Below are positions 3,829 to 62,067 of a stretch of DNA of 64,000 bases, in pieces (position 1 is the stretch's first letter; each line of letters begins with the position of its first letter). The DNA lies in NCBI GenBank assembly GCA_045587165.1, contig JAZNBT010000055.1, positions 7,017-71,016 of the forward strand, in the 5' to 3' direction. The translations under genes and the position numbers were made by a program. The DNA is from Alphaproteobacteria bacterium (lineage in GTDB: Bacteria > Pseudomonadota > Alphaproteobacteria > CAAGCB01 > CAG-977). The notes below the pieces were generated by a model that was given only the letters and a program-made list of their open reading frames with translations, was not told where the DNA came from and searched no databases.

Positions 3829-3899
3829 TGTTTTTTTCCTTTCTTTTGATAAAAATCTGATTTAAACCACTTTAACGCAGATTTATTAAAGGAGGCTTT

Positions 3900-42441: not shown

Positions 42442-43596
42442 TTACTTAACTGTTAACAGATTGTATGACGGAGATACCAGTAATGTATCTTTCTGAACGG
42501 TCAATGTGCTGTTTGCAGGAAGATTTACAGCTTCAAGCGCAACAGCATCCGACCGGAGAGATACCGCCGTATCAAGCGTGATCGAAGGAGTGTTGGGAAG
42601 CTCTGTATAGGTTGTCTCAATCAATTTGCTGACAGTCTTATCCGATCCCGTTAAGGTGCCGTCCAACTCGACGGCTCTGACAAAGCCCGTATATAAATAC
42701 GGTTTTCTTAACAGCGGTTTTTTAAAGTCGTCCATAACGACATCAACCGCTTCGAACTTCGGCAGGCAAAGATTTAATTTCCTGTTCCAGACCAAGGGTT
42801 TTGCCGTTATGTTTGTATTCAGCTTTGTATACAATGTATTCAATCTGGGCGTACTGGCAACAAGAGTTGGCAGACAGTCACCGCAGCAGGCTTTTCCGGT
42901 GCCGGATCCTACTGTGCATTGTTTTCCGAGCGGACATGTCACGCCGTCACACGGGCTTTTGCAACCGCCGTTTCCGTCGGCGACTTGTACGTTGCTGCAC
43001 TGCGGATCGTTTGTGGATCCCAACGGATACGGTATGCAACGACCGATGCTGCAATAATGTCCCGTACCGCATGTTTTGTTGGTGCACAGAGGGCGCTTGA
43101 TCAAACAGTAGCCTAATGTCGTACATATACCGTTGCTGCCGCAATCACTGTTTTGCGTGCATTGTACGCATTTTCCATTACCGACGCATTTTAAGCCTTT
43201 ATCGGTGCATATCTTTGCCACTTCTGCTCTTTCACAGGGTGTTTTACATGTTCCCTTGTGATTTTCAGCGATACATTGAGAGCCGCTTATGGATGAGCAA
43301 TCAACGTTTTTGCAAGCGGAAACGCACTCGCCGCCGGAGGCACATTTTTCCGTCAGTTCGCAATCGCTGTCGGAAAGACAAACGTCTACAGACGCCGTAC
43401 CGCCTCCACTGCCGAAACCGCCGGTTTCTTTTGACGCAGTGTATGCCGGAGCAGAAATAACAGTCGCGTTTCTACCGATTTTTACCGCTTTTGCGATCAT
43501 AAACGTATCATTTGAAAAAATGCCGGAAGTTTCCGTTGCCTGAACAGGGCTGGCGGCAAACCAGACGGCTGTAAAAAACAAAAACAGTTTTTTCAT
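42442..43596 (-). CDS. Secreted cysteine-rich repeat protein (EGF-like / granulin-like Cys spacing), paralog A
   Basis: 384 aa. Signal peptide (...ASPVQA/TE) and a Gly-rich linker. About 190 aa hold over 40 Cys in repeating C-x4-5-C-x5-C-x4-5-C units ending in CCGDC. The C-terminal Cys-free roughly 140 aa share motifs with the neighbouring paralog. Confidence 0.5.
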   Translation of the reverse strand: MKKLFLFFTAVWFAASPVQATETSGIFSNDTFMIAKAVKIGRNATVISAPAYTASKETGGFGSGGGTASVDVCLSDSDCELTEKCASGGECVSACKNVDCSSISGSQCIAENHKGTCKTPCERAEVAKICTDKGLKCVGNGKCVQCTQNSDCGSNGICTTLGYCLIKRPLCTNKTCGTGHYCSIGRCIPYPLGSTNDPQCSNVQVADGNGGCKSPCDGVTCPLGKQCTVGSGTGKACCGDCLPTLVASTPRLNTLYTKLNTNITAKPLVWNRKLNLCLPKFEAVDVVMDDFKKPLLRKPYLYTGFVRAVELDGTLTGSDKTVSKLIETTYTELPNTPSITLDTAVSLRSDAVALEAVNLPANSTLTVQKDTLLVSPSYNLLTVK

Positions 43597-43629
43597 AAGT
43601 TTTCTCCTTTAATATCTAGGTTTGCCGAT

Positions 43630-44697
43630 TTATTTGGCAACTTTTAACGCTTGCCATTTCGCCTGAGCGGCGACGGTTGCTTCTTCCATCAACACTTTTT
43701 TATTCAGAATTTCTTCCGCAACTACGGGATCGTCTAGAACCAATTTGGCCGTTTCGTCCTTCAAGGCGGCGTCTGTGGCGACCAATTCGAAATTTTCGAT
43801 TTTATATCTGTCAAGCAACACGGGTTTTAACGTGATGCCGGCGTCCGTCGCATCTTTTTGATATTCGCAACAACCGTCGTTACATTCCTGTCCTTCGCCG
43901 CATTTCACGCCGATACATTTCAGGTCGAAATCGATGGGAATGATTTCTGGCTTGCGGCATAGTTTCAACCTGCGGAATTTCTTGTTTGTGATGAATTTGC
44001 TGACCAAAGTTGTATCCAATACGCATTTGCTAGGATATTTGGCACAGTATCCGGCTCTGTTTTTCAACGGGTTGATGGTTTCGACTTCGGGATCCCATTC
44101 CGCGATTTTATACAACTGCGGATGTTTGACCGGCGTAATAAACGGTTTGAATTCATCTACCGTAAGATCGACGGTTTTAAAGCCGTTGTCGTCGACTTCG
44201 AAATCCGTTTTGAATTCTGCCACGTCGACAACATCGCTGTCGAATGTAACGCAGGGAATCGTGTCTATTTGAATGGCCGTATTCGGTAAAGTGGCAACGA
44301 TATCGTCAGAAACCAAATCAACGTCAGTTCTTGTACTGTCGTTTATTTGATCTTCCAAAACAATCCAACGATCGCTCGCTGTAAGAGTTAACAAGTCGGC
44401 TTTTTTAAATTGTGTCGTCGCTACTCCATTAATTGTTCTGACGGTAGTTCCTGTCGTAGTCGTTGTTGTCCCTGTTGTCGGTGTTGTGGTGGTGGGTGTA
44501 TATGTCGAAGTTCCACCGCTGCTGCCGCCGCTGACTCGATCGTCAACAGCCACGGCATATGACGCCTGTTGTTTTGCTACAGTTCCGACAGACGTGCCAT
44601 CCAAATCGGTTGCCACGGCATTCGCCGTTGTTGGCAGGATTGAAACGGCTGCGGGCAGAATCCCTATCGCCGCTGCGTAAAGGAAAAATTTCTTCAT
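43630..44697 (-). CDS. Secreted protein with mucin-like poly-Thr tract and C-terminal Cys-rich module, paralog B
   Basis: 355 aa. Signal peptide (...TTANA/VA) and low-complexity SGGSSGGTSTYTPTTTTPTTGTTTTTTGTT. Shares the LPNT..I..DT and VD..DFK..L.KP.LY motifs with paralog A, and its C-terminus ends in a CGEGQECNDGCC cluster. Confidence 0.5.
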   Translation of the reverse strand: MKKFFLYAAAIGILPAAVSILPTTANAVATDLDGTSVGTVAKQQASYAVAVDDRVSGGSSGGTSTYTPTTTTPTTGTTTTTTGTTVRTINGVATTQFKKADLLTLTASDRWIVLEDQINDSTRTDVDLVSDDIVATLPNTAIQIDTIPCVTFDSDVVDVAEFKTDFEVDDNGFKTVDLTVDEFKPFITPVKHPQLYKIAEWDPEVETINPLKNRAGYCAKYPSKCVLDTTLVSKFITNKKFRRLKLCRKPEIIPIDFDLKCIGVKCGEGQECNDGCCEYQKDATDAGITLKPVLLDRYKIENFELVATDAALKDETAKLVLDDPVVAEEILNKKVLMEEATVAAQAKWQALKVAK

Positions 44698-44749
44698 TAT
44701 ATGAGCCTCCTCTAATGTCTATAAATTTTTCTATATAATGGTAACATTT

Positions 44750-44767
44750 AATTGTGGCAAAATTATG
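44750..44767. repeat. 18-bp direct repeat AATTGTGGCAAAATTATG, copy 1, flanking the G-tract
   Basis: Perfect copy of the 18-mer that recurs at 44836-44853. Confidence 0.8.
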
Positions 44768-44781
44768 TAAATAATATGTTC

Positions 44782-44794
44782 GGGGGGGGGGGGG
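44782..44794. repeat. Homopolymeric G13 tract (C13 on the coding strand), candidate slipped-strand phase-variation switch, about 85-97 bp upstream of the paralog B start
   Basis: 13 consecutive G in an otherwise AT-rich intergenic region; no other homopolymer longer than 9 was noticed in the window. Confidence 0.8.
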
Positions 44795-44835
44795 TAACTT
44801 ATTGATTTTAAAAGATATTGTTTTATTTTTATTGC

Positions 44836-44853
44836 AATTGTGGCAAAATTATG
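44836..44853. repeat. 18-bp direct repeat AATTGTGGCAAAATTATG, copy 2
   Basis: Perfect copy of the 18-mer at 44750-44767. Confidence 0.8.
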
Positions 44854-44956
44854 GCAAAAAATGACAAATTTGTCCGCCATTCTTTTGTTTATGAATTTTT
44901 GATCTTTCGGGCATATTTGAAAATTCCGCCCGTTATTGCAACATGACGCAAAGCAA

Positions 44957-45910
44957 TCAAGGGTGCTTTAATAAATCTTTCAACGATTTCCAATGGTTAA
45001 ACTGAAAATGCGCTTTAATTCTGTCATAGACGGCTTTGTATTTATATCTGCGCAATCCTGAAGAATTCCAGTAATGAAGATATATTTTGTAAGGTTTGAA
45101 AATTGCCGCCGATCCGAACGAATTCCACGGTTTTTCATAGGCGATATAATGAAAAATTCCTGTGTTGTTCATATCTGCGGAATGGAGTGTCCTGAAAATC
45201 TGATTGTTCCATTTCGGATGCAGCGTTACGATGTCATTATTAAATAAACAGTTTAACAAGTCTTGTTCGCCGTATCCTTTATATTTTTTCGGATTTTTTT
45301 CAAAACTGGAAATTATTTTTTCAAACAGATTGTTTTTTTTCCATTTATCCGTATTTATTAAAATAACTCCGGCGTTGTAATAAATATCCGTTGAGCATAT
45401 TCTTCTTAAATCCGGTGAAACATCTTCCACCATTGCGAAAAAATGATTTTTTAAATCCGTTTGGAATATTTCTTTTAAATCTTGCATTACCAACGTGTCC
45501 GCGTCCATATACAAAACTTTGCTTACTTCGTCCGGTAAAAGCGAAGGAATGAACAGCCGCATGAAAGAAATAAAGGATACATGCTTATATTGGGAAGAGT
45601 ACATATGTTTTATTAATGGAAAATATGTCTGATATAACGAAGATTGATGCGGGGAGATAAAATTTATTTTTTGATTTCTTTTTTCAACATACTTTTTCAT
45701 CAGTTTTTTATTTTTTTCGGAAACGTTGTTTTCCAAAATCCAAAAAGTATATTCTGAACCGGATTTGTTGTTTTTTAGAATGGAATTGATGGAAAGAAGT
45801 GTATAAACAGCATAGCTGTCACTGATATTATAGGCAACGTGGACGGCATCATTCGCGATTGTTTTGAATGAAATTAAAATAAATAAAAAAGCTAAAACAA
45901 ACCGTTTCAT
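44957..45910 (-). CDS. Glycosyltransferase family 8 protein (LgtC/glycogenin-like) with N-terminal signal anchor
   Basis: 317 aa. GT8 motifs including DXD (LYMDADTLV) and the C-terminal H-x-x-G-x-x-KPW motif (HYIAYEKPW). N-terminal hydrophobic segment MKRFVLAFLFILISF. Very AT-rich (about 30% GC). Confidence 0.7.
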   Translation of the reverse strand: MKRFVLAFLFILISFKTIANDAVHVAYNISDSYAVYTLLSINSILKNNKSGSEYTFWILENNVSEKNKKLMKKYVEKRNQKINFISPHQSSLYQTYFPLIKHMYSSQYKHVSFISFMRLFIPSLLPDEVSKVLYMDADTLVMQDLKEIFQTDLKNHFFAMVEDVSPDLRRICSTDIYYNAGVILINTDKWKKNNLFEKIISSFEKNPKKYKGYGEQDLLNCLFNNDIVTLHPKWNNQIFRTLHSADMNNTGIFHYIAYEKPWNSFGSAAIFKPYKIYLHYWNSSGLRRYKYKAVYDRIKAHFQFNHWKSLKDLLKHP

Positions 45911-45923
45911 CTGTTTCTCCGGA

Positions 45924-46403
45924 TTAAAAAATAAAATAATATCTCATCAAAAAACTTGTCAAAAGAATGAACGACGAGCCGATGTATTTTATATCTTTGT
46001 TCTTTAAAGACAGCAGTGAAACGGAAAAAATAAGAAAAACAACCGCCTTGTTATATTCCGTTTTTTCAAATTGAATTGCATTTATAAAACCTGTAAATCC
46101 TATGCAAAAAAGGATGAAAGATATAAATAAAACAGTATGATACTTGTAGTAATCTTTTTTATAGATGGATATGATAAATATGGATACAATAAATAAACCT
46201 AAAAACGGGAATAAAAGTGTAAGAATATATACTATGAAATCAAAACAAGACAGCAAGAATAAATCTGCCATGAAAAAAAGATTATATTTTGTAAAAAGAA
46301 TTATTATGCTGTAGAGAATTGTAAAAATAAGTAATTTCATTTTAAACTCCGGATACGGAAAAGATATTTCAGAAAAATCATACTGTCCACAACATTTTTT
46401 CAA
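45924..46403 (-). CDS. Small polytopic membrane protein (4 predicted TM helices), hypothetical
   Basis: 159 aa and very AT-rich; lies 13 bp upstream of the GT8 gene on the same strand. The true start is possibly the internal MKLLIF. Confidence 0.4.
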   Translation of the reverse strand: MKKCCGQYDFSEISFPYPEFKMKLLIFTILYSIIILFTKYNLFFMADLFLLSCFDFIVYILTLLFPFLGLFIVSIFIISIYKKDYYKYHTVLFISFILFCIGFTGFINAIQFEKTEYNKAVVFLIFSVSLLSLKNKDIKYIGSSFILLTSFLMRYYFIF

Positions 46404-46482
46404 TATGGAGCAAGTGTTTCAAATATCGGATGAGCTGTCGGCTTTTGCCGGCAGCCTGTGCCGTTATATACAGATTTCAATA

Positions 46483-46511
46483 AAAAAGCCCTCGTTTCAG
46501 AGGGCTTTTTT
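46483..46511 (-). terminator. Hairpin plus T-run immediately downstream of tRNA-Arg (minus strand)
   Basis: GCCCTCGTTTCAGAGGGC hairpin flanked by A/T runs. Confidence 0.6.
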
Positions 46512-46513
46512 AT

Positions 46514-46590
46514 TGGTGATCTCGCCGCGATTCGAACGCGGGACCCACAGCTTAGAAGGCTGTTGCTCTATCCAGCTGAGCTACGAGACC
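46514..46590 (-). tRNA. tRNA-Arg (anticodon TCT), CCA encoded
   Basis: Manual cloverleaf: acceptor GGTCTCG/CGAGATC, D-arm GCTCAGCTGGATAGAGC, anticodon loop CTTCTAA, T-arm GGGTCCCGCGTTCGAATCGCGGC, discriminator A plus CCA. Confidence 0.9.
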
Positions 46591-46727
46591 ACACACAAAT
46601 TTTTTTAACCCGTTTGGGGTCTTATATCAAGCTTTTTTTCTGTTCCGCGATAGTTATGTTTTGTTCTTGCGTCTTGATTTCTTTTCGATATAATCTTTTT
46701 TATAATAATTCTAAACAGAAAGGAAAC

Positions 46728-47228
46728 ATGTTCATGTCTAAGTCTTTAGAAAATTTAATGGCAGCTTTTGCCGGTGAATCTCAGGCGTTTCAGAAATATT
46801 CCGCTTTTGCCGTTCAAGCCGATAAGGAAGGGTTTGCTCAGGTGGCGAAATTGTTCCGCGCCGCTGCCGCCGCTGAAAAAGTTCACGCCGGAAATCATTT
46901 ACGTGCCGCCGGAAAAATTTTAACGACAAAAGATAATCTGCAAGAAGCCATTGACGGCGAAACATACGAATTCGAACAGATGTATCCGCCGATGATCGCC
47001 GATGCTCAGGCCGAAGGAAACAAAGCCGCCGAACGTACGTTTACCATGGCAAACGAAGTCGAAAAAACGCACGCCCGCCTGTATAAAGAGGCTCTGGACA
47101 ATCTGGGGAACAATCAGGCAGCGGATATTTATGTTTGTCCGGTTTGCGGTGAAACGGTTGTCGGATCTTTGCCCGATAATTGTCCCGTATGCAAAGCCGC
47201 CGGAAAAATGTTTGTGAAGATCGATTGA
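46728..47228 (+). CDS. rbr: Rubrerythrin (ferritin-like diiron domain plus C-terminal rubredoxin-like CxxC-x12-CxxC)
   Basis: E-x-x-H diiron motifs and C-terminal CPVCG...CPVCK. True start at the ATG after an AAGGAAA RBS; the track ORF is artificially extended across the tRNA. Confidence 0.85.
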   Translation: MFMSKSLENLMAAFAGESQAFQKYSAFAVQADKEGFAQVAKLFRAAAAAEKVHAGNHLRAAGKILTTKDNLQEAIDGETYEFEQMYPPMIADAQAEGNKAAERTFTMANEVEKTHARLYKEALDNLGNNQAADIYVCPVCGETVVGSLPDNCPVCKAAGKMFVKID

Positions 47229-47247
47229 TTTTTTTTGATAAAGACGG

Positions 47248-47278
47248 GCGGACACTTGATAAAAGTGTCCGCTTTTTT
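47248..47278 (+). terminator. Rho-independent terminator after rubrerythrin
   Basis: GCGGACACTTGATAAAAGTGTCCGC hairpin followed by T6. Confidence 0.75.
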
Positions 47279-47340
47279 AATGATTTATTATATTTTTTGC
47301 GGTTATCCTGTCTTGAAAAAATCTTTCTAAAGACAAGAAT

Positions 47341-50300
47341 ATGATGAAAAATCGATTTTTTATAATTTTATGTTTTTTTACATTTTCGGCGTTTCCTGCA
47401 TTTGCCGAAGAGTTAAACTACAATGATTCCGAGACATTTCCGGAATTTTTCAAAAACGTAGATGCTTTGATCGCGATCGGTGCGGATAAAGCCTATACCG
47501 GAGCGGACGGTACGGCATATTCCGGATTTTCAGGGGCGGGAGTGACCGTTGCCGTCATTGATAACGGGACAATGGCGAATCATCCGGATCTCGTGCAGTC
47601 ACACAGCACTCTGCAAAAACCGCAATTTAATATTTCCGCAGAAAAACACGGTACGCACGTCGCCGGTATCATTGCCGCGGAAAAAAACGGTTCCGGAATG
47701 CACGGGGTGGCATATAATTCCGATTTGTTGCTTTTTTCCACTTCACTGGAAGGCGGCTGCGGCGGCATGGAGGGCTGTTTGAGCCCGATGGCGGCTTTAG
47801 AGGCATTGTTGGACAGTGAATACGATGACGTTAAAATTATTAACAACAGTTGGGGGCTTTTTGAAGAGGATATCAACGAAAATGTATTGGCCAATATTCA
47901 TCGGTTGATGGATGCCATCGTCGCCAAAGATAAACTGATCGTTGCTTCCGCCGGAAATGATATGGAGTTGAATCCCAATACTTTTCCCGCCGGTGTCGGG
48001 CTGTTGGATAATTCCTTTAAAAATAATGTAATTAATGTTGTCGCTTATGATTCGTTCAAAAATCATTCCGCTAACGATTTTATCGCGTCTTTTTCCAATT
48101 TGGCAGGTGACGCAAAGGAATGGACTCTGGCCGCCCCCGGAAAAAATATTTATTCTTCGATTTTATATGATGAAACGGCAGACCCTCCCGCGGAAAAATT
48201 CGCTGAGATGAACGGTACATCCATGGCGGCGCCGCTTGTTTCCGGCGCGGCCGCTTTGGTTCAGGAAGCTTTCCCTTATTTAGGCGGCAAACAAATCGCC
48301 GATATTTTGTTTTCTACGGCAAAAAAGAAAAAGGATTTGGATGAAACAGGTTCGGGGCTGAGCCCGTATATGATTCAAAATTATTCGGGACAAACGCGTG
48401 TTTTATTCTTTAAAGATAATAAAGAGGGCACTACGTTTGAAGAAGCCAAAGCTGCCGCCGCTTCGCTCGGATACTCTTGCGGCGGATCCGTTTCCTGTCA
48501 CGAAGTCACGTTTGAAGATGTCTTCGGTCAGGGATTGTTGGATGTCGGGACGGCTGTCAAAGGCATTAAATATTTCGATGCGTCCAGATTGACGGCCGAA
48601 GATTTCGACATAGGAAAAAACCAGTTTTATTACAGTGTTGATACTTTGGGTATGGACAGCGTATGGAGCAACGATATCGGTCAGCTCCGATCAAGCGACG
48701 AATTGTATAAAACGGCGAATGTCGGTTTAAGAAAACGGGGTGAAGGCGTTTTAACCTTGGCCGGAGCAAATACGTTTTTAGGTACTTCGGTCGTTGACGG
48801 CGGTGAATTGAATTTGACGGGCAGCATGGAAGGCGATGTTGTTGTCAATACGGGAACGTTTTCCTTGTCGGATACCGGTTTGATGAACGGCAAAATAACG
48901 ACGAATGCCGACGGATTGTTGCGGATAGAAGATTCCGGAACGCTTTTAAATCTTGAAAATAACGGAAAGACTTTGGCCTCGGGCGGAAAATCAACGGGGA
49001 ATGTTGTTAATAACGGAACGTTTTCCGTCGCCGGAGGAGGTTTTATATCAAGCAGAACATTTACAAATAAAAACAATTTTCAGTTTGAAACCGACGGACG
49101 TTTTTCAGGCGTTTTAGATAACGAAGGGCTTGTTTCCGTTATAGGTAACAGCGAAATAGAAGGAAATCTTAACAACAAATCGTCCGGAATCGTTTTTGTG
49201 AACGCCACGATAGGAAATTCGTCGGCTATAGAGAATTATGGTCTTTTATCCGGTGAAGGCGACATAACGGGATCTGTTGTCAATCATGAATCGGGTACCG
49301 TCGCGACAACATTGAAGATTCATGATTTAAATTCTACCGGAAATATTCAGTTGTCCGAAAATCCGGACGGATTGGCCACTTTGAAGGTCAATACACTGAA
49401 TATTACAGGGGGGGCTTTGACGATCGCAAGCGGTAATATCAGCTATGAAAACGGGCAAACCTATTCGGTGATTGAATTTGATAATCTGACGAGTTTTGAA
49501 AATTTCGAACCGCAATCGAAACTGTCCGATTTTATTGTGGCGACGCCTCATGTAAACGGCAACCGTATTGAAGCCAGAATCGATTATTTGCGTATGGGCG
49601 AATCCGCTGCGACGGAAACATTTCTACCGGAAGAAAAAGTCGTCGCCGGTATTATGGATAAAATGTATTTTGACGACAGTAATAAGGATTTAAAAGGGTA
49701 TTTTTATCTGTCCGGCAAAGAACTGCAAAAGGAAATCAATACGATCCGTTCCAAAGCAAAGCCGATTCAAAAAGAACATTTACCGTTGGCGGGAACAATG
49801 TCTTCACAGGTTTCCAATCATTTATTCAAGGTAAATATGAATCGTGACGCGGCGACGTTTCATCGTCAATACAGACCGATGCAGCAATACAGGGGCCGAT
49901 ATTACAACCGCGGTTCCGTCGGCAGGTATTATCGCGGCAGATCCGGCGGCAGCGCTCCGAAAACGGGAAACAAGATCTGGGGGCAAATTCTGGGCGGCAG
50001 AGTTGTTGAGGAGGACAATGTTTCGGACAGGGGGAATGTCAAAACCAGAACGGTCGGCGGTATGATCGGATACGATCATGAAATTTCATCGCGATCTTTA
50101 ATCGGTATTACGGCCGGTTATGCTTCGGGGCGTTTGACGCAATCTTCGGATGAAATTAACGTTAATGATTATCGCGCGGGGATTTACACGGGATCCAGAT
50201 TCGGCAAACTGACGTTTAACACGATGTTGTTGGGCGGTTTTCAACAATATAAAAGCGAACGGTATACGGAAGCCGCCGGTTTAAATGCTTTGCATCGGGC

Positions 50301-50799
50301 TGATTTTAACGGATATTCCGCGGAATTGGATGTAAATCTGGGCTATGATTTCATGCGTTTGCCGTATCGGGATTATTCTTTTTATCTGCGATCCTATCTG
50401 GCGGCGAACGTCAATTATATTTCTCAGGATTCATATGAAGAAAAAGGGGAATCGCCAATGCTGTTAGGCGTTGACAGCATTAATAACACTTCTGTCAGTA
50501 TTCAGCCGGGGATTACGATCGGTTATACCTTTTCTCAGGCCGTTTTGACGGCTGATTTCGGTTATCAGCGGATTTTAAGCGGTGATTCCGTTCAATCTTC
50601 GGCTTATTTCCTTGCGGATACGGCAAGAACACCGTTTGAATCTTTATCGGCGGAATCGGATAAAGATTATATTAATGCCGGCGTCGGTCTGAAAACAAAC
50701 CTGACCCGTAACGTTGAATTGAATTTGTATGCCGGTATGCGGAAATCCGATAATACCGAGGCGATTAATTTCGCCGCATCGCTGTCGTATGCTTTTTAA
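47341..50799 (+). CDS. Subtilisin-like (peptidase S8) autotransporter, paralog 1
   Basis: 1152 aa. Signal peptide; S8 catalytic triad motifs (VAVIDNGT, HGTHVAGIIAA, GTSMAAPLVSGAAAL); Gly/Asn-rich beta-helix passenger repeats; Tyr/Arg-rich linker; about 280-aa C-terminal beta-barrel ending in SYAF. Confidence 0.85.
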   Translation: MMKNRFFIILCFFTFSAFPAFAEELNYNDSETFPEFFKNVDALIAIGADKAYTGADGTAYSGFSGAGVTVAVIDNGTMANHPDLVQSHSTLQKPQFNISAEKHGTHVAGIIAAEKNGSGMHGVAYNSDLLLFSTSLEGGCGGMEGCLSPMAALEALLDSEYDDVKIINNSWGLFEEDINENVLANIHRLMDAIVAKDKLIVASAGNDMELNPNTFPAGVGLLDNSFKNNVINVVAYDSFKNHSANDFIASFSNLAGDAKEWTLAAPGKNIYSSILYDETADPPAEKFAEMNGTSMAAPLVSGAAALVQEAFPYLGGKQIADILFSTAKKKKDLDETGSGLSPYMIQNYSGQTRVLFFKDNKEGTTFEEAKAAAASLGYSCGGSVSCHEVTFEDVFGQGLLDVGTAVKGIKYFDASRLTAEDFDIGKNQFYYSVDTLGMDSVWSNDIGQLRSSDELYKTANVGLRKRGEGVLTLAGANTFLGTSVVDGGELNLTGSMEGDVVVNTGTFSLSDTGLMNGKITTNADGLLRIEDSGTLLNLENNGKTLASGGKSTGNVVNNGTFSVAGGGFISSRTFTNKNNFQFETDGRFSGVLDNEGLVSVIGNSEIEGNLNNKSSGIVFVNATIGNSSAIENYGLLSGEGDITGSVVNHESGTVATTLKIHDLNSTGNIQLSENPDGLATLKVNTLNITGGALTIASGNISYENGQTYSVIEFDNLTSFENFEPQSKLSDFIVATPHVNGNRIEARIDYLRMGESAATETFLPEEKVVAGIMDKMYFDDSNKDLKGYFYLSGKELQKEINTIRSKAKPIQKEHLPLAGTMSSQVSNHLFKVNMNRDAATFHRQYRPMQQYRGRYYNRGSVGRYYRGRSGGSAPKTGNKIWGQILGGRVVEEDNVSDRGNVKTRTVGGMIGYDHEISSRSLIGITAGYASGRLTQSSDEINVNDYRAGIYTGSRFGKLTFNTMLLGGFQQYKSERYTEAAGLNALHRADFNGYSAELDVNLGYDFMRLPYRDYSFYLRSYLAANVNYISQDSYEEKGESPMLLGVDSINNTSVSIQPGITIGYTFSQAVLTADFGYQRILSGDSVQSSAYFLADTARTPFESLSAESDKDYINAGVGLKTNLTRNVELNLYAGMRKSDNTEAINFAASLSYAF

Positions 50800-50820
50800 T
50801 AAAACAAAGAGGGAAATGCG

Positions 50821-53800
50821 GTGTTGAAATATAACCTTTTTCCTCTTTTCTTTGCTCTGCCGTTTTCCGCAGCCTTTGCGGCGGATACGGAATATTCCGT
50901 CAATCAAAAAGCTTATGACGCTTTAGGGGCGTCGCAGGCGTATGCGTTGGGCTTTACGGGGGCGGGCGTTACGGTCGCCGTTGTCGACAACGGAACGCTT
51001 GCCACGCATCAGGAATTGAAAGACAAATTCAGCGAACTGCAAAAGGACGAATACAATCATTATCAGGATATTGCGGATCACGGTACGCCGGTTTCCAGTA
51101 TAATTGCCGGAAAAAAGGACGGAACGGGCATGCACGGTATCGCATATGATTCGCAAATCGTCGCTTTCGCCGTAGAGTTGGACGACGGTGTGGATTGTCC
51201 GTCATGCTATCAAGGTTATGCGGAAGCTTGGAATATTCTGGCGACGGATGAATTTGACAGCGTTAAGATTATCAATAACAGTATCGGAAGTTATGATCAT
51301 TTACCTGATTCCACTCCTTCTTCCGATAGAAGAAGCGCGGCGGCGGCTCTGGTCGCAAAGGATAAATTGATTGTTGCGGGTGCGGGAAACGATACTTCTT
51401 TGTCTCCCGCCGACAGTCCGGCCGGGCTGCCTTATTATGATTCCAGTCTGAAGTATAATTTCATCAGCGCGATCGCGTATAATGCATATTATACCTCATC
51501 CAGTCCGTATTTTTTGGAAAGTTATACCAATTTGGCTCAATATGCGCAGGAATGGTCGTTAGCGGCACCGGTCGGATCTTTGAGGGCGGCATCGCATGAA
51601 GGGGATTCTTCCTATACGAATTTTGCCGGAACGTCTGCGGCGACACCGGTTATTTCAGGCGCTGCTGCCGTCGTATCCAGCGCTTTTCCTTATATGGGCG
51701 GGAAACAACTGGCTGACGTTTTGTTTTCCACTGCCGATAAAAATTATGCCGGTTTCAGTGATTATATGATTCAAAAAGATAACGGCAAATTGCAATTTTT
51801 GTTTTTCGGGTCGGCCGACGGATACGGCAAAGATTGGTCGGACGATGAAAAAAAAGCGATCGTTCAAGCGGAAATGGGCGGCGCGTATACGTGTTCGACT
51901 GAAGGCGTTTTTTGTGTCGACGTCAGTTATGCCGACGTTTTCGGCCAAGGGGTGTTAAATTTGGCCAATGCCGTCAAAGGCCCCGGCTATTTGGATGCCA
52001 ATCGTCTGAAGCTTTCCGATTTTACGGGAACGCAGTATGTTTATACGGTCGACGTGCAAGAATATGACAGCACGTGGAGCAATAATATCGGTCAGGTTAA
52101 ATCAAAAACCGAAAATATTGATGCGGACGTCGGCCTGAAAAAACAGGGGGCGGGAACTTTGACCCTTTCCGGACAGAATACGTATTTAGGGACGACGACG
52201 ATTGAAAGCGGTGCATTACGCTTGACAGGAACATTGGCCGGGGATGTGTCCGTCGCTTCGGGAACATTTTATTTAAACGGCGGAACCGTTTTCGGAAAAA
52301 CGGTTTCTTTGGCCGGCGGGGAAGTTAATGTTGACGGCGGAACGTTATTTTCGCTCAGCGGAGCCGGAACGGTTAACTTTTCGGCGGGATCTGTTCGAGA
52401 GGTGAAAAATCAGGGGAATTTTTACCTGACGGGAAGCGGGCTTATTGCCGATTCGGTCGAAAATACCGGACAATTTTATTTTAACGGCGGTTCGATAAAA
52501 GGTTCCGTTTCAAACGAAGGGAATTTTTATTTAAACAATCCGTCGTTTTCTCAAAAAATCCAAAATACGGGAACGGTTCAAAACAATACGTTATTGAAAG
52601 AAGGGTTGGTTATCGGCGGAACGTTGGTTAATCAGGCAGGAGGTCTTCTTTATTTGACTTCGACACCGGATACGTTGATCAATTACGGCGGAATAGTTTT
52701 ATCTCCTTCGTCGACAGATGCCTCCGTTTTACAGCAAATGACGGTTTCTCATTTAACGTTGGCCGGCGGAGGATTTGTGCTGGATACGAATAATTTGCCG
52801 GAATTCGGGGAAGGAATGTCCTATCAGATTTTAAAGGCTGAAAATTCTTTAAGTATCGGTGATGATTTTAAGCTTTCCGATCAGATCGGCCAATTTATTG
52901 TCGCCCGAACGAATGTAGACAACACGGAAAGAACGATTTCTTTATCATTGGAGTTTTTGCCTTTATCTTCAACGTCTTATGCTCCGAATTTAACGGAAAT
53001 GGAACGTCAAACGGCGACGGTGATCGATCGTTTGTTTAAAAACGAACATTTCAATGATTTCTCGGGATTTTATTTCTTGGATGAAAAAGGTTTGAAAGAT
53101 CGGATAAATAAAATAAAAGATCAGGTAAAACCGGTTCATTTTGCTTCTTTGCCGTTGTCAAACAGGTTGGGACGGACGATCCAAACACATCTTTTTGAAC
53201 GTCAAACCGGTAAAGATCCGTATCGGTATAACGGCGGACGGCGGTATTATGAACCGTTATCCCCCGGTCGCCATTCGCCGCGAGGGGACGTATACCGCAA
53301 TTATCGTCCCGGTAATACGCCTCAGGAAAATTATCGTCATGCCGTTCCGCGGACGAATGATGTGTACCGCAATTATCGTCCGGGTAATGCGCCTCAAGAA
53401 AATTATCGTTATTATGTGCCGCGCAAACGCGACGTTTACCGTAATTTCAGACCGAACGGTCGTTCCGGCGGACAATCGTTCGGTATGCGGACAAACGTTT
53501 GGGGGCAAATGTTGTATGCCAAAAGCACGTATGATGCCGATGAGCTTTCCGGCGGGACCGAAGCCGAGGGCACCGGCATAGGGCTGATGTTCGGATGGGA
53601 TTTCGTTTATTCGAAAGACTTTTTGTGGGGGGTGACGGCCGGATATGCACAGTCGTCCGTTGAACAAGACGACGACAATACCGATGTGACCGATTTGCGT
53701 TTCGGCGCCTATTTCAGTCGACAAAAGGATTTTTTGTCCGTTGACGGCGTATTGATGATCGGATTGCAAAGTTATGATAAAAAACGCGTTACGGATTTGC

Positions 53801-54345
53801 CGATGAAGACGTTTGAACATTCGGCGTCTTTTAACGGAACCAGTGTTGAGGCCGCTTTGAATGTAGGATATGACCTGCATCAGATTCCCATGCAGGCGGG
53901 CGATTGGTCTTTCAGGCCTTATATCGGTGCGACGGTTATACAGATGACGCAAGACGCCTACAGTGAAACAGGTTCATCTGATCTGAATTTATCCGTACAG
54001 GAAGCCAAAGACACTTCCGTTATTTTATCCCCCGGTTTAATTGCCGGATTTGTCGCCGCAGATACGAGTCTTTTCTTGATCAAGCCGGAATACGTCTTTT
54101 TTGATTTGCGTTATGATCAATATTTATCGGGGGGGAATGCCTCGACAAAAGCTTATTTCAGTGCGGATACGCTGCAGACGATGTTTGAATCTCCGGACAG
54201 TGAAGAAAAATCCGCGTTTACGTTCGGGGTAGGCGTTAACGGCCGTATATCTAAAAATACGCGTTTGAACTTGCTGTTCAGCAACAGAGCCGGTTCTAAA
54301 TCGTCTTCGCAGTCGATTTCGGCGACACTGATTCATTCGTTCTGA
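50821..54345 (+). CDS. Subtilisin-like (peptidase S8) autotransporter, paralog 2
   Basis: 1174 aa with GTG start after an AGAGGG RBS. S8 motifs (VAVVDNGT, HGTPVSSIIAG, GTSAATPVISGAAAV); beta-helix passenger; internal 72-bp tandem repeats; C-terminal barrel ending in IHSF. Confidence 0.85.
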   Translation: MLKYNLFPLFFALPFSAAFAADTEYSVNQKAYDALGASQAYALGFTGAGVTVAVVDNGTLATHQELKDKFSELQKDEYNHYQDIADHGTPVSSIIAGKKDGTGMHGIAYDSQIVAFAVELDDGVDCPSCYQGYAEAWNILATDEFDSVKIINNSIGSYDHLPDSTPSSDRRSAAAALVAKDKLIVAGAGNDTSLSPADSPAGLPYYDSSLKYNFISAIAYNAYYTSSSPYFLESYTNLAQYAQEWSLAAPVGSLRAASHEGDSSYTNFAGTSAATPVISGAAAVVSSAFPYMGGKQLADVLFSTADKNYAGFSDYMIQKDNGKLQFLFFGSADGYGKDWSDDEKKAIVQAEMGGAYTCSTEGVFCVDVSYADVFGQGVLNLANAVKGPGYLDANRLKLSDFTGTQYVYTVDVQEYDSTWSNNIGQVKSKTENIDADVGLKKQGAGTLTLSGQNTYLGTTTIESGALRLTGTLAGDVSVASGTFYLNGGTVFGKTVSLAGGEVNVDGGTLFSLSGAGTVNFSAGSVREVKNQGNFYLTGSGLIADSVENTGQFYFNGGSIKGSVSNEGNFYLNNPSFSQKIQNTGTVQNNTLLKEGLVIGGTLVNQAGGLLYLTSTPDTLINYGGIVLSPSSTDASVLQQMTVSHLTLAGGGFVLDTNNLPEFGEGMSYQILKAENSLSIGDDFKLSDQIGQFIVARTNVDNTERTISLSLEFLPLSSTSYAPNLTEMERQTATVIDRLFKNEHFNDFSGFYFLDEKGLKDRINKIKDQVKPVHFASLPLSNRLGRTIQTHLFERQTGKDPYRYNGGRRYYEPLSPGRHSPRGDVYRNYRPGNTPQENYRHAVPRTNDVYRNYRPGNAPQENYRYYVPRKRDVYRNFRPNGRSGGQSFGMRTNVWGQMLYAKSTYDADELSGGTEAEGTGIGLMFGWDFVYSKDFLWGVTAGYAQSSVEQDDDNTDVTDLRFGAYFSRQKDFLSVDGVLMIGLQSYDKKRVTDLPMKTFEHSASFNGTSVEAALNVGYDLHQIPMQAGDWSFRPYIGATVIQMTQDAYSETGSSDLNLSVQEAKDTSVILSPGLIAGFVAADTSLFLIKPEYVFFDLRYDQYLSGGNASTKAYFSADTLQTMFESPDSEEKSAFTFGVGVNGRISKNTRLNLLFSNRAGSKSSSQSISATLIHSF
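53287..53460 (+). repeat. About 2.4 tandem copies of a 72-bp coding repeat (DVYRNYRPGN(T/A)PQENYR) in the autotransporter 2 linker
   Basis: Units at 53287-53337 and 53359-53409 are near-identical (3 mismatches), and a degenerate third unit follows. Confidence 0.8.
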
Positions 54346-55388: not shown

Positions 55389-55658
55389 TCAGCCGTTTTG
55401 ATCGGTTAATAAAAATCCGTATTGCCGTTCCATTGCCGAACGAAACAAATCAATTTGTCCGTTTAACTGGATCAACAGCGGTTTTAAAGAAACGCAGTGC
55501 GCATATCCTTCTTCTTCGGTCAGTCGGCAGATGGTGTCGATCATTCCGTTTAATGAAGCGATACTGACCAACCGTCCGTTATTGATCAGATCTGTCGCCG
55601 TTGACAGTAAAGCCGAAGCTTTTTCCATTTCTGTTTGAATACGCTGTGTTTGTGTCAT
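55389..55658 (-). CDS. Hypothetical small protein, possibly flagellar-associated
   Basis: 89 aa, translationally coupled between the FlhB-C-like and fliO genes; no recognised motif. Confidence 0.3.
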   Translation of the reverse strand: MTQTQRIQTEMEKASALLSTATDLINNGRLVSIASLNGMIDTICRLTEEEGYAHCVSLKPLLIQLNGQIDLFRSAMERQYGFLLTDQNG

Positions 55659-55942
55659 GACAATGCGTTTTTCCCTTCGACGGAAGCGTTTAACTCATAG
55701 ATATAAGAAAGAATTTCGGCAACGGCGGCAAAAGCTTCGGGCGGTATTTCGCTGTCCAGATCGATGGCGGCTAAAATTTCAGCCAAATCGGCGTCTTGAC
55801 GAACTTTGATTCCGGCGGCAAAAGCCAAATCCAAAATTTTTTCGGCGATGTATCCGTATCCGCTGGCGGTAACAGTCGGTGTTTTTCCCGTTTCGGGATC
55901 GTACTGCAAAGCAGCGGCGACGGTTCTTTTGTTTTGCCTCAT
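55655..55942 (-). CDS. FlhB C-terminal-domain-like protein (EscU/YscU/HrcU family fragment)
   Basis: 95 aa. Matches the FlhB C-terminal domain region following the autocleavage site (...YDPETGKTPTVTASGYGYIAEKILDLAFAAGIKV...). Confidence 0.7.
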   Translation of the reverse strand: MRQNKRTVAAALQYDPETGKTPTVTASGYGYIAEKILDLAFAAGIKVRQDADLAEILAAIDLDSEIPPEAFAAVAEILSYIYELNASVEGKNALS

Positions 55943-58588: not shown

Positions 58589-60331
58589 ATGCGGAAAAGT
58601 AAAGAAATGTTCAGCCTTATCCCCTTTTTAAAAGAATATAAAAAAGAATGCCTGATCGGCCCGTTGTTTAAACTTCTGGAAGCCTGCTTTGAATTGATCG
58701 TTCCTCTGATTATGGCCGGAATTATTGATGTCGGGATTAAAAACGCCGATACGGCATATATTTATAAAATGGGCGGAATAATGGTGTTTTTGGGGTTATT
58801 GGGATTGATTTGTTCTTTAACGGCTCAGTATTTCGCGGCCAAGGCGTCCATGGGATTCGGAACGTCTTTGCGCAGTGCGCTGTTTCGTCATATTTCGGCA
58901 TTGTCTTCCGGCGAGCTTGATGAAATCGGCACGCCGTCTTTGATTACGCGGCTGACCGGCGATATTAATCAGGCGCAGTCCGGCGTTAATCTGGTGTTGA
59001 GGCTGTTTTTGCGTTCGCCCTTCATTGTTGTCGGAGCGATTATCATGGCCTTTTTCGTTGACGTGAAATTGGCTGTCATCTTCTTAGTCGCCACCCCTTT
59101 GATCGGGGCTGTTATTTATTTTGTAATGTTCGGATCCATTCCGTACTATAAAAAAATTCAATCGGTTATGGATCGGATTTCTTTGCTGACGCGGGAAAAT
59201 CTGACGGGTGTTCGTATCATTCGCGCTTTTTCAAAACAGCATGAAGAAATAAAAAATTTTAAAACCACTTGCGAAACGTTGATGGACGAACAAATTTTGG
59301 CAGGCAAAATCGCGGCGCTGTTAAATCCGGCGACGTATGTCGTCGTGAACGCGGCCGTAATCGCGATCATATGGGGAGGAGGATTTCAGGTTGATGCCGG
59401 TGATTTAACTCAAGGTGAAGTGATCGCTTTGGTTAATTATATGTCGCAGATTTTATTGGCTTTGGTCGCTTTGGCTAATTTAATCGTTGTTTTTACAAAG
59501 GCTTCCGCTTCAGCCGTTCGTATTAAAGAAGTCTTTGAAATTCTGCCGACCGTTGTCGAAAAGGATCATGCGGTCGAATTTCCTTCCGCCGTTTTTCGCG
59601 TGATATTTGATAACGTTTCTTTTGCTTATAAAGGGTCGGAGGTAGAAGCTTTAAGCAATATTTCTTTTGCCGTTCCCGTCGGTTCAACCGTCGGCGTGAT
59701 CGGCGGAACGGGATCGGGAAAAACGACGCTGATTAATTTATTGGCGCGTTTTTATGATGTCACGAAAGGTCGTGTTTTAATCGACGGCATTGATGTCAAA
59801 GAATGTTCCTTTGCCGATTTACGTAAAAAAATCGGTATCGTGCCTCAAAAATCCGTTTTGTTTAAGGGTACGATACGTGAAAATATGCGTTGGGGAAAGA
59901 ATGACGCTTCTGACGCCGAAATCAAACAAGCGTTAAAAATTGCGCAAGGATGGGATTTCGTTCAATCAAAGCCTGACGGACTGGATACAAAAGTTACGCA
60001 GGGCGGTAAGAATTTGTCCGGCGGACAAAGACAGCGTTTGACGATTGCGCGCGCTTTAACCGCCCGCCCCGAAATTCTGATTTTGGATGACAGCGCTTCG
60101 GCTTTGGATTTTGCGACGGATGCCAAATTGCGCAAAGCGATTAAAAACGAAACGAAAGGCATGACGGTATTTCTGGTTTCTCAACGTGTATCAACTTTAA
60201 GAAACGCCGACTTCATTATCGTTTTAGACGACGGTAAAGCCGTCGGCATAGGCAAACATGACGATTTGTTTGAAAATTGTCCCGTTTATCGTGAAATTTG
60301 CCTTTCCCAACAGGAAAAGGAGGAAGCGTAA
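58589..60331 (+). CDS. ABC transporter permease/ATP-binding protein (type I exporter half-transporter), subunit 1
   Basis: 580 aa. Six-TM domain followed by an NBD with Walker A GGTGSGKTT, signature LSGGQRQR and Walker B ILILDD. Confidence 0.88.
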   Translation: MRKSKEMFSLIPFLKEYKKECLIGPLFKLLEACFELIVPLIMAGIIDVGIKNADTAYIYKMGGIMVFLGLLGLICSLTAQYFAAKASMGFGTSLRSALFRHISALSSGELDEIGTPSLITRLTGDINQAQSGVNLVLRLFLRSPFIVVGAIIMAFFVDVKLAVIFLVATPLIGAVIYFVMFGSIPYYKKIQSVMDRISLLTRENLTGVRIIRAFSKQHEEIKNFKTTCETLMDEQILAGKIAALLNPATYVVVNAAVIAIIWGGGFQVDAGDLTQGEVIALVNYMSQILLALVALANLIVVFTKASASAVRIKEVFEILPTVVEKDHAVEFPSAVFRVIFDNVSFAYKGSEVEALSNISFAVPVGSTVGVIGGTGSGKTTLINLLARFYDVTKGRVLIDGIDVKECSFADLRKKIGIVPQKSVLFKGTIRENMRWGKNDASDAEIKQALKIAQGWDFVQSKPDGLDTKVTQGGKNLSGGQRQRLTIARALTARPEILILDDSASALDFATDAKLRKAIKNETKGMTVFLVSQRVSTLRNADFIIVLDDGKAVGIGKHDDLFENCPVYREICLSQQEKEEA

Positions 60332-62067
60332 TGCAAAAACAGAATTTGTTAAAGCGGCTTCTTTCTTTTACCCGTCCTTATCTGCTTTATTTGATTCTGG
60401 CATTGATTTTGGCTGTTTTCAGCGTATCTTTGGCACTCTATGCGCCTGTGCTGACCGGTCGGGCTATTGATTTGGTCGTCGGTCGGGGGCAAGTGAATTT
60501 TGAAGCTTTAAAATCTGTTTTATTTACGCTTGGAACGGTTGTTGCCGCAACGTCGTTCAGTCAATGGCTGATGGGATTGTTTACCAATAAAATCACATAC
60601 CTGAGTGTGCGTGATATTCGTGTCAAAGCTTTTGAACGTTTGCAAAAAGTGCCGTTGCGATTTGTTGATTCGAATGCGCACGGCGATATTCTCAGCCGCG
60701 TTATCGTTGATGCGGAACAGGTGGCCGATGGTTTGTTGATGGGATTTACGCAGTTGTTTACCGGAATCGTGACGATTTTCGGAACGATCGGGTTTATGCT
60801 GGCGATTAATGTCAAAATTACGCTGTTGGTTGTTTTTGTGACCCCGCTTTCTTTGTTTGTTGCTCATTTTATTGCCAAACGGACGTTCAATCTGTTTAAA
60901 CTGCAATCCGAAACGCGCGGCGAAATGACGGCAATGATTGAAGAAAACGTCGGAAACATGAAATTGGTCAAAGCGTTCGGACGGGAATCGGCGTCAATCG
61001 CAAAGTTTGAAGAAATCAACGGTCGTCTGCGCATCTGCGGGATAAAGGCTTTATTCTTTTCTTCTATCACGAATCCGTGTACGCGGTTTGTCAACGGAGT
61101 CGTATATACGTTGGTCGGTATTGTCGGGGCATTGTCGGCAGTGGCCGGTGCGTTAAGCGTCGGACAGTTATCCTGCTTTTTAAGCTATGCAAATCAATAT
61201 ACGAAGCCGTTTAACGAAATTTCGGGCGTTATTGCCGAATTGCAAAGCGCTTTGGCTTCCGCGAAAAGGCTGTTTGAAATTATCGATACCGAGCCTGAGG
61301 CGCCGGATTCGAAAGACGCTTCCGTATTAACAAGGGCGGACGGATCGGTTTTTTTGGAAAAAGTTTCGTTTTCTTATGTGCCGGAAATTAAATTAATCGA
61401 GGATTTAAATCTGTCCGTGCAATCCGGTCAAAAAATAGCGATTGTCGGAAGGACGGGCTGCGGAAAAACGACTTTGATCAATTTATTAATGCGTTTTTAT
61501 GACGTTAATGCCGGTCGTATTGTCGTCAGCGGCAAAGAAATCAAAGAATTGACACGCGACAGTTTGCGTGCGTCATTCGGTATGGTATTGCAGGATACAT
61601 GGCTGAAATCGGGTACAATCCGAGAAAATATCGCGTACGGCCGGCCGAATGCGTCCGATTATGAAATTGTCAGCGCGGCCGTTGCGGCGCATGCCGACGG
61701 TTTTATCAAACGTTTGCCGAACGGGTATGATACGCCGATAGCCGAAGACGGCGGCAATCTTTCTCAAGGACAAAAACAGTTGTTGTGCATCGCGCGCGCG
61801 ATGCTTTCCCTGCCGCCCATGCTGATTTTGGATGAAGCGACCAGCTCGATAGACACGCGTACGGAAATTCATGTTCAAAAAGCATTTGATGAAATGATGC
61901 GGGGGCGGACAAGTTTTGTCGTTGCGCACCGGTTGTCGACAATCAGACGGGCGGATCAGATTTTGGTAATGGATGCCGGACGGATCATAGAGCAGGGAAA
62001 CCATTTGGAACTGCTTGCAAAAAAAGGATTTTACGCCGAACTGTACAACAGTCAGTTCGCCGTTTGA
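60331..62067 (+). CDS. ABC transporter permease/ATP-binding protein (type I exporter half-transporter), subunit 2
   Basis: Walker A GRTGCGKTT, signature LSQGQKQL, Walker B LILDEA. Start at the ATG overlapping the upstream stop; the track ORF starts 33 nt earlier. Confidence 0.88.
   Translation: MQKQNLLKRLLSFTRPYLLYLILALILAVFSVSLALYAPVLTGRAIDLVVGRGQVNFEALKSVLFTLGTVVAATSFSQWLMGLFTNKITYLSVRDIRVKAFERLQKVPLRFVDSNAHGDILSRVIVDAEQVADGLLMGFTQLFTGIVTIFGTIGFMLAINVKITLLVVFVTPLSLFVAHFIAKRTFNLFKLQSETRGEMTAMIEENVGNMKLVKAFGRESASIAKFEEINGRLRICGIKALFFSSITNPCTRFVNGVVYTLVGIVGALSAVAGALSVGQLSCFLSYANQYTKPFNEISGVIAELQSALASAKRLFEIIDTEPEAPDSKDASVLTRADGSVFLEKVSFSYVPEIKLIEDLNLSVQSGQKIAIVGRTGCGKTTLINLLMRFYDVNAGRIVVSGKEIKELTRDSLRASFGMVLQDTWLKSGTIRENIAYGRPNASDYEIVSAAVAAHADGFIKRLPNGYDTPIAEDGGNLSQGQKQLLCIARAMLSLPPMLILDEATSSIDTRTEIHVQKAFDEMMRGRTSFVVAHRLSTIRRADQILVMDAGRIIEQGNHLELLAKKGFYAELYNSQFAV

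Follow-up and report, generated by a model that had tools for sequence, protein, structure and literature searches.

The window, the whole 64-kb stretch of DNA analyzed here, carries two adjacent genes for S8 subtilase autotransporters, all features of which lie on the plus strand. Gene A (47341..50799) starts with ATG and encodes 1152 aa, while gene B (50821..54345) starts with GTG and encodes 1174 aa. The ORF coordinates are exact and the two products share 34% identity over their full length (BLASTP, 570 bits), which bears out the original prediction of a tandem of co-oriented paralogs of about 1150 aa. The ORF lengths and E-values of A and B are not a matter of chance. A-type proteins are recognized by the motifs HGTHV and GTSMAAP and the terminal sequence SLSYAF, and B-type proteins by HGTPV, GTSAA(A/T)P and the end LIHSF, the N-terminus of B orthologs being MLKY or MLRY.

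The two genes are separated by 21 nt (50800..50820), which contain a purine-rich ribosome-binding site (AAAGAGGGAAA) and in which no terminator was found. In the related loci L001, L003 and L006, the A-B spacers are likewise 15-21 nt long and carry purine-rich sites. A and B are probably co-transcribed as a two-gene operon. The rubrerythrin gene upstream of A (46734-47228) had been considered relevant to the pair; however, it has a strong intrinsic terminator of its own (47246..47284; 12-bp stem with 6 GC pairs, 5-nt loop and T-run), which sets the 5' limit of the A-B transcription unit, and in L001, L003 and L005 the pair has no rubrerythrin gene ahead of it.

Direct reading of the N-termini revealed signal peptides of the signal peptidase I type, comprising aa 1-22 in A (47341..47406; MMKNRFFIILCFFTFSAFPAFA, followed by EE) and aa 1-20 in B (50821..50880; MLKYNLFPLFFALPFSAAFA, followed by AD). 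Both have a basic n-region, a hydrophobic core and an AFA cleavage motif, and both coincide with low pLDDT in the AlphaFold2 models (aa 1-26 in A; aa 1-20 in B, <50). A regular expression for the lipobox, [LVI][ASTVI][GAS]C, found no match in either signal peptide: Cys11 of A lies in the context IILC, and the signal peptide of B has no Cys. A lipoprotein anchor was thus ruled out for both window proteins. P0013 is the only ortholog with a lipobox-like sequence (LISC).

The Pfam thresholds for both Peptidase_S8 and Autotransporter are passed by each protein. The Peptidase_S8 domain (PF00082, cut-off 21.8 bits) was detected at aa 65-332 of A (E 3.2e-47, 161.7 bits) and aa 47-311 of B (E 3.4e-36, 125.5 bits). 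The subtilase head of A (47521..48705) consists of an S8 core (aa 61-335) and a conserved extension (aa 336-455) containing the Cys pair C380/C386. That of B (50947..52113) comprises the core (aa 43-313) and an extension (aa 314-431), with Cys pairs 126/129 and 358/365. No I9 propeptide was found in A or B. The AlphaFold2 heads matched many subtilisin structures, with TM-scores on target of 0.75-0.85.

Careful alignment showed that the S8 triad predicted for both paralogs is intact, together with the oxyanion Asn. The catalytic residues of A are D74 (47560-47562, in VAVIDNGT), H103 (47647-47649, in HGTHVAG) and S294 (48220-48222, in GTSMAAP), with N206 (47956-47958) as the oxyanion residue. 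The corresponding residues of B are D56 (50986-50988, in VAVVDNGT), H87 (51079-51081, in HGTPVSS), S272 (51634-51636, in GTSAATP) and N190 (51388-51390); all codons were checked. These residues align with D32/H64/S221 and N155 of BPN', a register that agrees with the alignments of both heads to PDB subtilisins and to Ssp. The four residues are invariant in 22/22 A-type and 39/39 B-type homologs. A loss of the catalytic His in B, as HGTPV might suggest, was ruled out, the first His of the motif being the catalytic one and being retained. The non-canonical S8A motifs of B, HGTP and GTSAA, differ at non-catalytic positions, and these departures could make B less active or change what it does. Kexin and furin have Arg at position 67, and subtilisin with the M222A exchange is still active; on that basis, the changes in B would be compatible with catalysis.

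Both AlphaFold2 models (pLDDT 90 for A and 87 for B) continue from the head into a beta-helix stalk and a helical junction, after which a disordered linker leads to the 12 C-terminal strands. The stalk spans aa 456-750 in A (48706..49590), with regular short strands and pLDDT >90, and aa 432-715 in B (52114..52965). Its composition (G 13.9% and N 11.9% in A; G 14.8% and N 8.1% in B) agrees with the Gly/Asn-rich beta-helix passenger originally proposed. A PATR repeat lies at the start of each stalk, scoring just under the Pfam cut-off of 27 in A (aa 463-492, 26.6 bits) and over it in B (aa 439-468, 36.1 bits); TIGR02601 exceeded its cut-off of 19.85 bits in both (A 24.0, B 33.6). No Pfam autochaperone domain was detected in A or B at E <= 0.01.

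The junction and linker of A (aa 751-839 and 840-876; 49591..49968) include helices at aa 763-839 and a segment with pLDDT <50 at aa 837-871. The linker is disordered and Arg/Tyr/Gly-rich, containing YRGRYYNRG...YYRGRSGG, the YRGRSGG part of which is kept in the family consensus. In B, the junction (aa 716-796, helices at 726-803; 52966..53208) leads into a disordered linker rich in Arg, Tyr, Pro and Asn (aa 797-890, pLDDT <50; 53209..53490). With regard to an alpha-helical linker inside the barrel pore, the models place a helix (aa 819-839 in A, 782-796 in B) ahead of the low-confidence linker, which leads to the first barrel strand.

The translocators occupy aa 877-1152 of A (49969..50796) and aa 891-1174 of B (53491..54342). 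The autotransporter beta-domain (PF03797, cut-off 26 bits) was found at aa 879-1130 of A (E 8.9e-36, 124.4 bits) and aa 893-1151 of B (E 5.8e-34, 118.4 bits). DSSP counted 12 barrel strands in each model, as predicted, and the barrels superposed on those of NalP (1uyn; Foldseek on predicted structures, TM-score on target 0.79-0.81, with B at 0.81) and EstA (3kvn; rmsd 2.1-2.5 Å over 283-292 columns, B reaching 2.1 Å over 292). Both proteins end in Phe, and a terminal F or W recurs throughout the family. The predicted aromatic-x-F ending holds for A (Y-A-F) and only loosely for B (H-S-F).

The linker of B contains about three copies of a 24-aa unit, DVYRNYRPGN(T/A)PQENYR(H/Y)(A/Y)VPR(T/K)(N/R), encoded by a DNA repeat with a 72-nt period (53287-53446; TRF). 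The repeat is kept in all B-type orthologs and absent in A-type proteins, and a search among 1.84 billion representatives confined it to B-type proteins. The one unrelated match, P0122, is apparently an artifact of translating repetitive DNA. The dN/dS of the B linker is 0.09-0.17. The repeat, maintained by purifying selection, is a lineage-restricted oddity of a gut/rumen alphaproteobacterial clade. It could conceivably represent a new functional autotransporter module, either a long, flexible surface tether binding LPS or peptidoglycan or a regulated release site, which would make A and B one released and one tethered protease; we regard this as doubtful.

A neighbor-joining tree separated the A and B clades deeply, and the two are ancient diverged paralogs kept apart, not recent copies. 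Overall dN/dS was 0.14-0.17 (A) and 0.12-0.14 (B), and no domain for which a value could be defined exceeded 0.21. Comparisons with the window proteins are near saturation (dS 1-1.6, with a few segments undefined); the less diverged L006/L007/L008 pairs gave the same outcome. All these domains are thus under purifying selection, and the domain-wise estimates along the passenger showed neither positive selection nor relaxed constraint. Within B, constraint is strongest on the S8 domain (dN/dS ~0.10-0.15), which also shows higher conservation than its counterpart in A. Several substitutions from A to B are type-specific and conserved within each type, namely H67 to P, G70 to S and M222 to A (BPN' numbering), while position 126, in the 125-127 cleft wall, is Trp in A and Leu, Ile or Phe in B. 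The original prediction that divergence reflects substrate specialization therefore stands in part: type-specific residues flank the catalytic ones under purifying selection, but the difference in the His motif, on which it was based, spares the catalytic His. Residues of this kind beside the active site would fit differing specificities without showing them, and specialization is plausible.

In MAGs of gut and rumen Alphaproteobacteria, the A-B pair is flanked by tRNA-Arg(TCT) and fliP. The gene order and a purine-rich spacer of 15-21 nt are conserved between these two landmarks in at least seven related MAG loci, the relatives being MAGs labelled Alphaproteobacteria or Rhodospirillaceae. Among incomplete MAGs, L005 and L012 have only A at this locus, and L015 and L016 have only B, the motifs and repeats of the lone B being intact; a second copy may lie elsewhere in these genomes. 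On the opposite strand, at a distance of 3-5 kb upstream of the pair, are two Cys-rich ORFs for secreted proteins, separated from it by a GT8 gene, a membrane-protein ORF, tRNA-Arg and the terminated rubrerythrin gene. Such genes are near the pair only in the closest relatives, L006 and L007. In L001, L003, L005, L013 and L016 there are none beside it; their position is taken by AhpC, a relaxase/MobC element or other genes, with the autotransporter locus left in place. The Cys-rich region is a variable island across the tRNA gene from the pair.

Taken together, these data make it likely that each of the two genes, which probably share one operon, encodes a classical type Va autotransporter, with a catalytically competent S8A-like serine protease passenger on a beta-helix stalk. 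For the secretion route, activity, release and substrates of A and B we infer the following pathway, modeled on type Va secretion as it is generally understood and on Serratia Ssp. Sec would carry each pre-protein over the inner membrane, where signal peptidase I would cut off the 20-22-aa signal peptide. The C-terminal 12-stranded barrel would then enter the outer membrane, and the linker and passenger would be threaded outward. Folding of the beta-helix would start at its C-terminal end, and the subtilase head would fold at the tip without an I9 propeptide. Since neither protein is lipidated, A and B would be retained by barrel and linker only, or be released through linker cleavage. Their heads (D74/H103/S294 with N206 in A; D56/H87/S272 with N190 in B) would cut extracellular or surface proteins, the likely targets being host, dietary or other bacterial surface proteins of the gut or rumen. 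The two most likely have different substrate preferences, as they are ancient paralogs kept apart with type-specific residues adjoining the active site.

Instead of acting on such targets, A and/or B might stay surface-bound and process other proteins that the bacterium itself secretes, such as the Cys-rich neighbors. NalP, SphB1, AasP, EprS and Pfa1 do process other extracytoplasmic proteins (PMC9289746), and the two Cys-rich ORFs are indeed close by in the window, L006 and L007. However, the strand, the intervening genes and the lack of conserved synteny described above do not support the protease-substrate link that had been suggested, and we found no sequence evidence for the Cys-rich proteins as substrates. 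The 64-kb window contains no TPS or other autotransporter gene. In addition, A and B have no lipobox, the surface-retention device of NalP and SphB1 (PMC9289746), which weakens the analogy to these maturation proteases. Hence, we consider a maturation role unlikely.

An intact triad is no guarantee of a protease role, since PrtA and PrtB of Pseudomonas have not been shown to be proteolytic and roles in adhesion or biofilm formation were proposed for them (PMC7298200). B could by analogy be a pseudo-protease acting as an adhesin or aggregation factor, a reading compatible with the extra repeat module in its linker and with its departures from the S8A consensus beside two catalytic residues. Nevertheless, all 39 B-type sequences keep the triad and the oxyanion Asn, and the S8 domain is where B is most constrained, making this quite improbable. 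Very unlikely in our view is that A and B constitute an obligate functional pair, for example with one cutting the linker of the other for release or activation. Conserved adjacency, probable co-transcription and the disordered Arg-rich linkers in both proteins would fit such a pair, as would the cleavage of their own junction region by Ssp-type enzymes (PMC9977779), but the A-only and B-only loci, although from incomplete MAGs, argue against it. We thus favor two secreted, catalytically competent subtilases.

As a group, subtilisin-like autotransporters are established but poorly understood. Their roles include surface maturation as well as host-directed ones (PMC9289746, PMC9977779), and most characterized members are from beta- and gamma-proteobacterial pathogens (PMC9289746). 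A and B belong to this well-known protein type, and the pair is old and conserved; it opens no new mechanism, and the tempting link to the Cys-rich proteins is removed as unsupported. It extends the group to uncultured gut/rumen Alphaproteobacteria, a little-known commensal lineage in which the pair is a conserved, constrained and probably abundant surface feature and therefore a candidate for host- or dietary-protein degradation.

By architecture, the best NCBIfam model matches were EprS of Pseudomonas aeruginosa (NF051851; A 136 and B 97 bits vs. a cut-off of 1700) and fusolisin of Fusobacterium nucleatum (NF033865; A 47 and B 61 bits vs. 999), the fusolisin structure 8axg also being among the fold matches of A. 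These scores are far under the equivalog cut-offs, and thus the function of A and B cannot be transferred from a specific ortholog. NalP of Neisseria meningitidis and SphB1 of Bordetella pertussis share the S8 passenger and 12-stranded translocator, but are N-terminally lipidated (PMC9289746, PMC9977779), whereas A and B have signal peptides of the signal peptidase I type. The arrangement of two adjacent co-oriented genes for Ssp-like autotransporters recalls PrtA/PrtB (PspA/PspB) of the Pseudomonas aprX-lipA2 operon, where related genomes differ in having lost either gene or both (PMC7298200), comparable to our A-only and B-only loci. This likeness is drawn from the description of a distant relative; PrtA/PrtB belong to an operon that also encodes protease, lipase and type I secretion functions, whereas A-B stands alone between tRNA-Arg and fliP. 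By both sequence and fold, the best solved relative of the two passengers is Ssp of Serratia marcescens (PDB 8e7f; PMC9977779). Its identity to A and B is only ~19% in the structural alignment, and its self-cleavage sites and cytotoxic function are not transferable to them. Unlike Ssp, A and B have an Arg/Tyr-rich disordered linker, are ~100-130 aa longer, and have a modeled stalk of ~285-295 aa vs. the 248-residue helix reported for Ssp. The overall plan is nonetheless the same in all three: a signal peptide, a subtilase head with the D/H/S triad and without an I9 propeptide, a short beta-helix with a PATR-like start, a junction and a barrel.

Genes A (47341-50799, + strand, ATG start, 1152 aa) and B (50821-54345, + strand, GTG start, 1174 aa) form the tandem, co-oriented pair at exactly the predicted coordinates, and their products share 34% identity over their entire length (570 bits). 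In Pfam searches, the E-values for A and B were 3.2e-47 and 3.4e-36 against Peptidase_S8, and 8.9e-36 and 5.8e-34 against the Autotransporter beta-domain, confirming that the core interpretation of the pair as S8 autotransporters was correct. TIGR02601 scored above its cut-off in A and B, and the Pfam PATR profile exceeded its gathering score of 27 in B (36.1 bits) and fell marginally under it in A (26.6 bits).

We have built AlphaFold2 models of the two proteins from a 71-sequence alignment (mean pLDDT 90.2 for A and 86.9 for B). Each model comprised a subtilase head with a conserved extension (to ~455 aa in A and ~431 aa in B), a beta-helix stalk (~456-750 and ~432-715 aa), a helical junction (~751-839 and ~716-796 aa), a disordered Arg/Tyr-rich linker (~840-876 and ~797-890 aa) and 12 C-terminal strands (877-1152 and 891-1174 aa), so that the anticipated 12-strand barrel was predicted in both. 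In Foldseek searches of the PDB, the top match to the two models was Ssp, the Serratia marcescens subtilase autotransporter. The barrels matched the 12-stranded autotransporter barrels of full-length EstA (3kvn; rmsd of 2.1-2.5 Å over 283-292 columns) and, with on-target TM-scores of 0.79-0.81, of the NalP translocator (1uyn). Each head contained two closely spaced cysteine pairs, with no cysteine elsewhere in the mature passenger. Closely spaced cysteines are typically the only ones tolerated in autotransporter passengers.

The nearest solved relative of A and B was the Ssp passenger (8e7f), followed by classical subtilisins. Residues were numbered after subtilisin BPN', in an alignment whose register agreed with the Ssp and subtilisin alignments. 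The catalytic triad was intact in both copies, with D32, H64 and S221 corresponding to D74, H103 and S294 in A and to D56, H87 and S272 in B, and the oxyanion residue N155 to N206 and N190, respectively (alignment, with codons checked). These four residues were invariant in 22/22 A-type and 39/39 B-type homologues, the types being distinguished by the motifs HGTHV and GTSMAAP (A) or HGTPV and GTSAA(A/T)P (B). The difference noted in the original prediction between HGTHVAG and HGTPVSS was real, but it lies at position 67 and leaves the catalytic residue, the first His of the motif, unaffected. Position 67, beside the catalytic His, is H in A-type and P in B-type proteins (elsewhere S, A or G); G70 is consistently replaced by S in the B-type, and M222, beside the catalytic Ser, by A. 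At position 126, in the cleft wall, all A-type proteins carry Trp and B-type proteins Leu, Ile or Phe. Both enzymes are thus probably proteolytically active, each preferring different substrates, and the targets would probably be host, dietary or bacterial surface proteins.

Among scored candidates, 1470 homologous proteins were found at E ≤ 1e-10. The full-length relatives were encoded by MAGs of human gut, rumen and comparable origin that carry the label Alphaproteobacteria or uncultured Rhodospirillaceae, and remoter S8 autotransporters by Enterobacterales plant pathogens, Desulfovibrio and Negativicutes. In a neighbour-joining tree without bootstrap, the A-type and B-type formed separate deep clades, and a third type of ~1100 aa grouped beside the A clade (P0026, P0030, P0031, P0033 and P0071, with HGT[S/G/H]V and ending in QYAF, QYSF or SYSF). 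This third type was present in related Alphaproteobacteria and absent from the window.

The gene order tRNA-Arg(TCT), A, B and, on the opposite strand, fliP was complete in the window and in the related MAG loci L001/L010, L003/L009, L006, L007, L008, L011 and L013; L005/L012 had A alone, and L015 and L016 B alone, with motifs and repeats intact. In L011 (2831-6302), the A-type orthologue was broken into two frames near 3889/3903 by a frameshift, which would mean that the gene is a pseudogene or that the contig was misassembled. Adjoining fliO/fliP, a 95-aa ORF (55655-55942, - strand) kept in syntenic loci matched the FlhB/YscU family only at C-terminal profile positions 260-335, and is predicted to be a stand-alone FlhB C-terminal-domain-like protein. 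The A-B spacer measured 15-21 nt, contained a purine-rich ribosome-binding site and had no detectable terminator, and for these reasons the two genes are likely co-transcribed. Between these genomes, identity was 87-97% for the flanking RodA and FliP, 50-68% for A and 56-80% for B, marking both as comparatively fast-evolving surface proteins, A more than B. Gene A had an overall Nei-Gojobori dN/dS of 0.14-0.17 and gene B one of 0.12-0.14; by domain it was ≤0.21 wherever the estimate was defined, highest in the beta-helix and lowest in the barrel and S8 core. Such values point to purifying selection on both genes, neither of which resembles a decaying copy.

We have then considered the proposal that the pair processes the products of the nearby Cys-rich module. 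The two Cys-rich secreted ORFs (42442-43596 and 43630-44697), which had no Pfam match, lie on the - strand; between them and the A-B pair come a GT8 glycosyltransferase gene (44957-45910), an ORF for a membrane protein of 159 aa and tRNA-Arg. They belong to a variable island (42442-46590) between rodA and tRNA-Arg(TCT); GC falls to 0.37 at 44-46 kb. The same slot held AhpC in L001, a relaxase/MobC/ArdC/methylase element in L003, a spermine-synthase-like gene in L005 and a Cys-rich pair with a resolvase in L006, resolvase and CDGSH genes being also among the slot contents of relatives, while the autotransporter locus remained unchanged. Because relatives carry different genes there, the tRNA-Arg gene looks like an integration hotspot, and the Cys-rich adjacency is, by this comparative synteny, the edge of a variable island at a tRNA gene, not a conserved linkage. 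The protease-substrate relationship thus found no support. Nor did the relevance attributed to rubrerythrin, whose gene (46734-47228, 164 aa, start ~46734) has its own strong intrinsic terminator (47246-47284) and is confined to closer relatives. The ORF listed for it (46458-47228) was rejected, as it runs through the tRNA-Arg gene of the opposite strand. Elsewhere in the window, the "tRNA-???" with a 4-base anticodon called by ARAGORN at 61348-61437, within an ABC-transporter ORF (60298-62067), is very probably a false positive.

The B linker contained ~3 copies of a 24-aa Tyr/Arg/Pro-rich repeat, DVYRNYRPGNxPQENYRYYVPRxx, encoded by tandem DNA of 72-nt period (53287-53446, B aa ~823-875). 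Two to four copies were present in every B-type orthologue examined, and the repeat was absent from A-type proteins, which have only a short YRGRYYRGRSGG stretch. It was predicted to be disordered by AlphaFold2, and its dN/dS of 0.09-0.17 shows purifying selection. Among 1.84 billion representative proteins searched, it occurred in the B-type only, one further match being spurious. Flexible tether or release site would be our guesses for its role. This repeat is the only unusual, lineage-specific element of the pair.

Both proteins start with a short signal peptide of the signal peptidase I type (…PAFA|EE in A and …AAFA|AD in B), in which no lipobox was found. From their architecture, established type Va secretion and Ssp (PMC9977779), we infer that A and B would be exported by Sec and cleaved by signal peptidase I; the barrel would then insert and the passenger be translocated, its beta-helix folding C-to-N, and the active subtilase head would be displayed, or released once the linker is cut.

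The originally suggested likeness to the maturation proteases NalP and SphB1 lacks a defining feature: the lipidation thought to retain both at the surface (PMC9289746, PMC9977779) has no counterpart in A or B. Neither are A and B equivalogs of EprS or fusolisin, the NCBIfam scores being far under the cut-offs. In NCBI, related MAG proteins already bear the name "autotransporter domain-containing protein" or "S8 family serine peptidase." There is also a precedent for Ssp-like autotransporter genes in tandem, one of which is variably lost, in prtA/prtB of the Pseudomonas aprX-lipA2 operon (PMC7298200). Subtilisin-like autotransporters are an established group (Group 15, PMC9289746), of which A and B are ordinary members, with Ssp as the closest known system.
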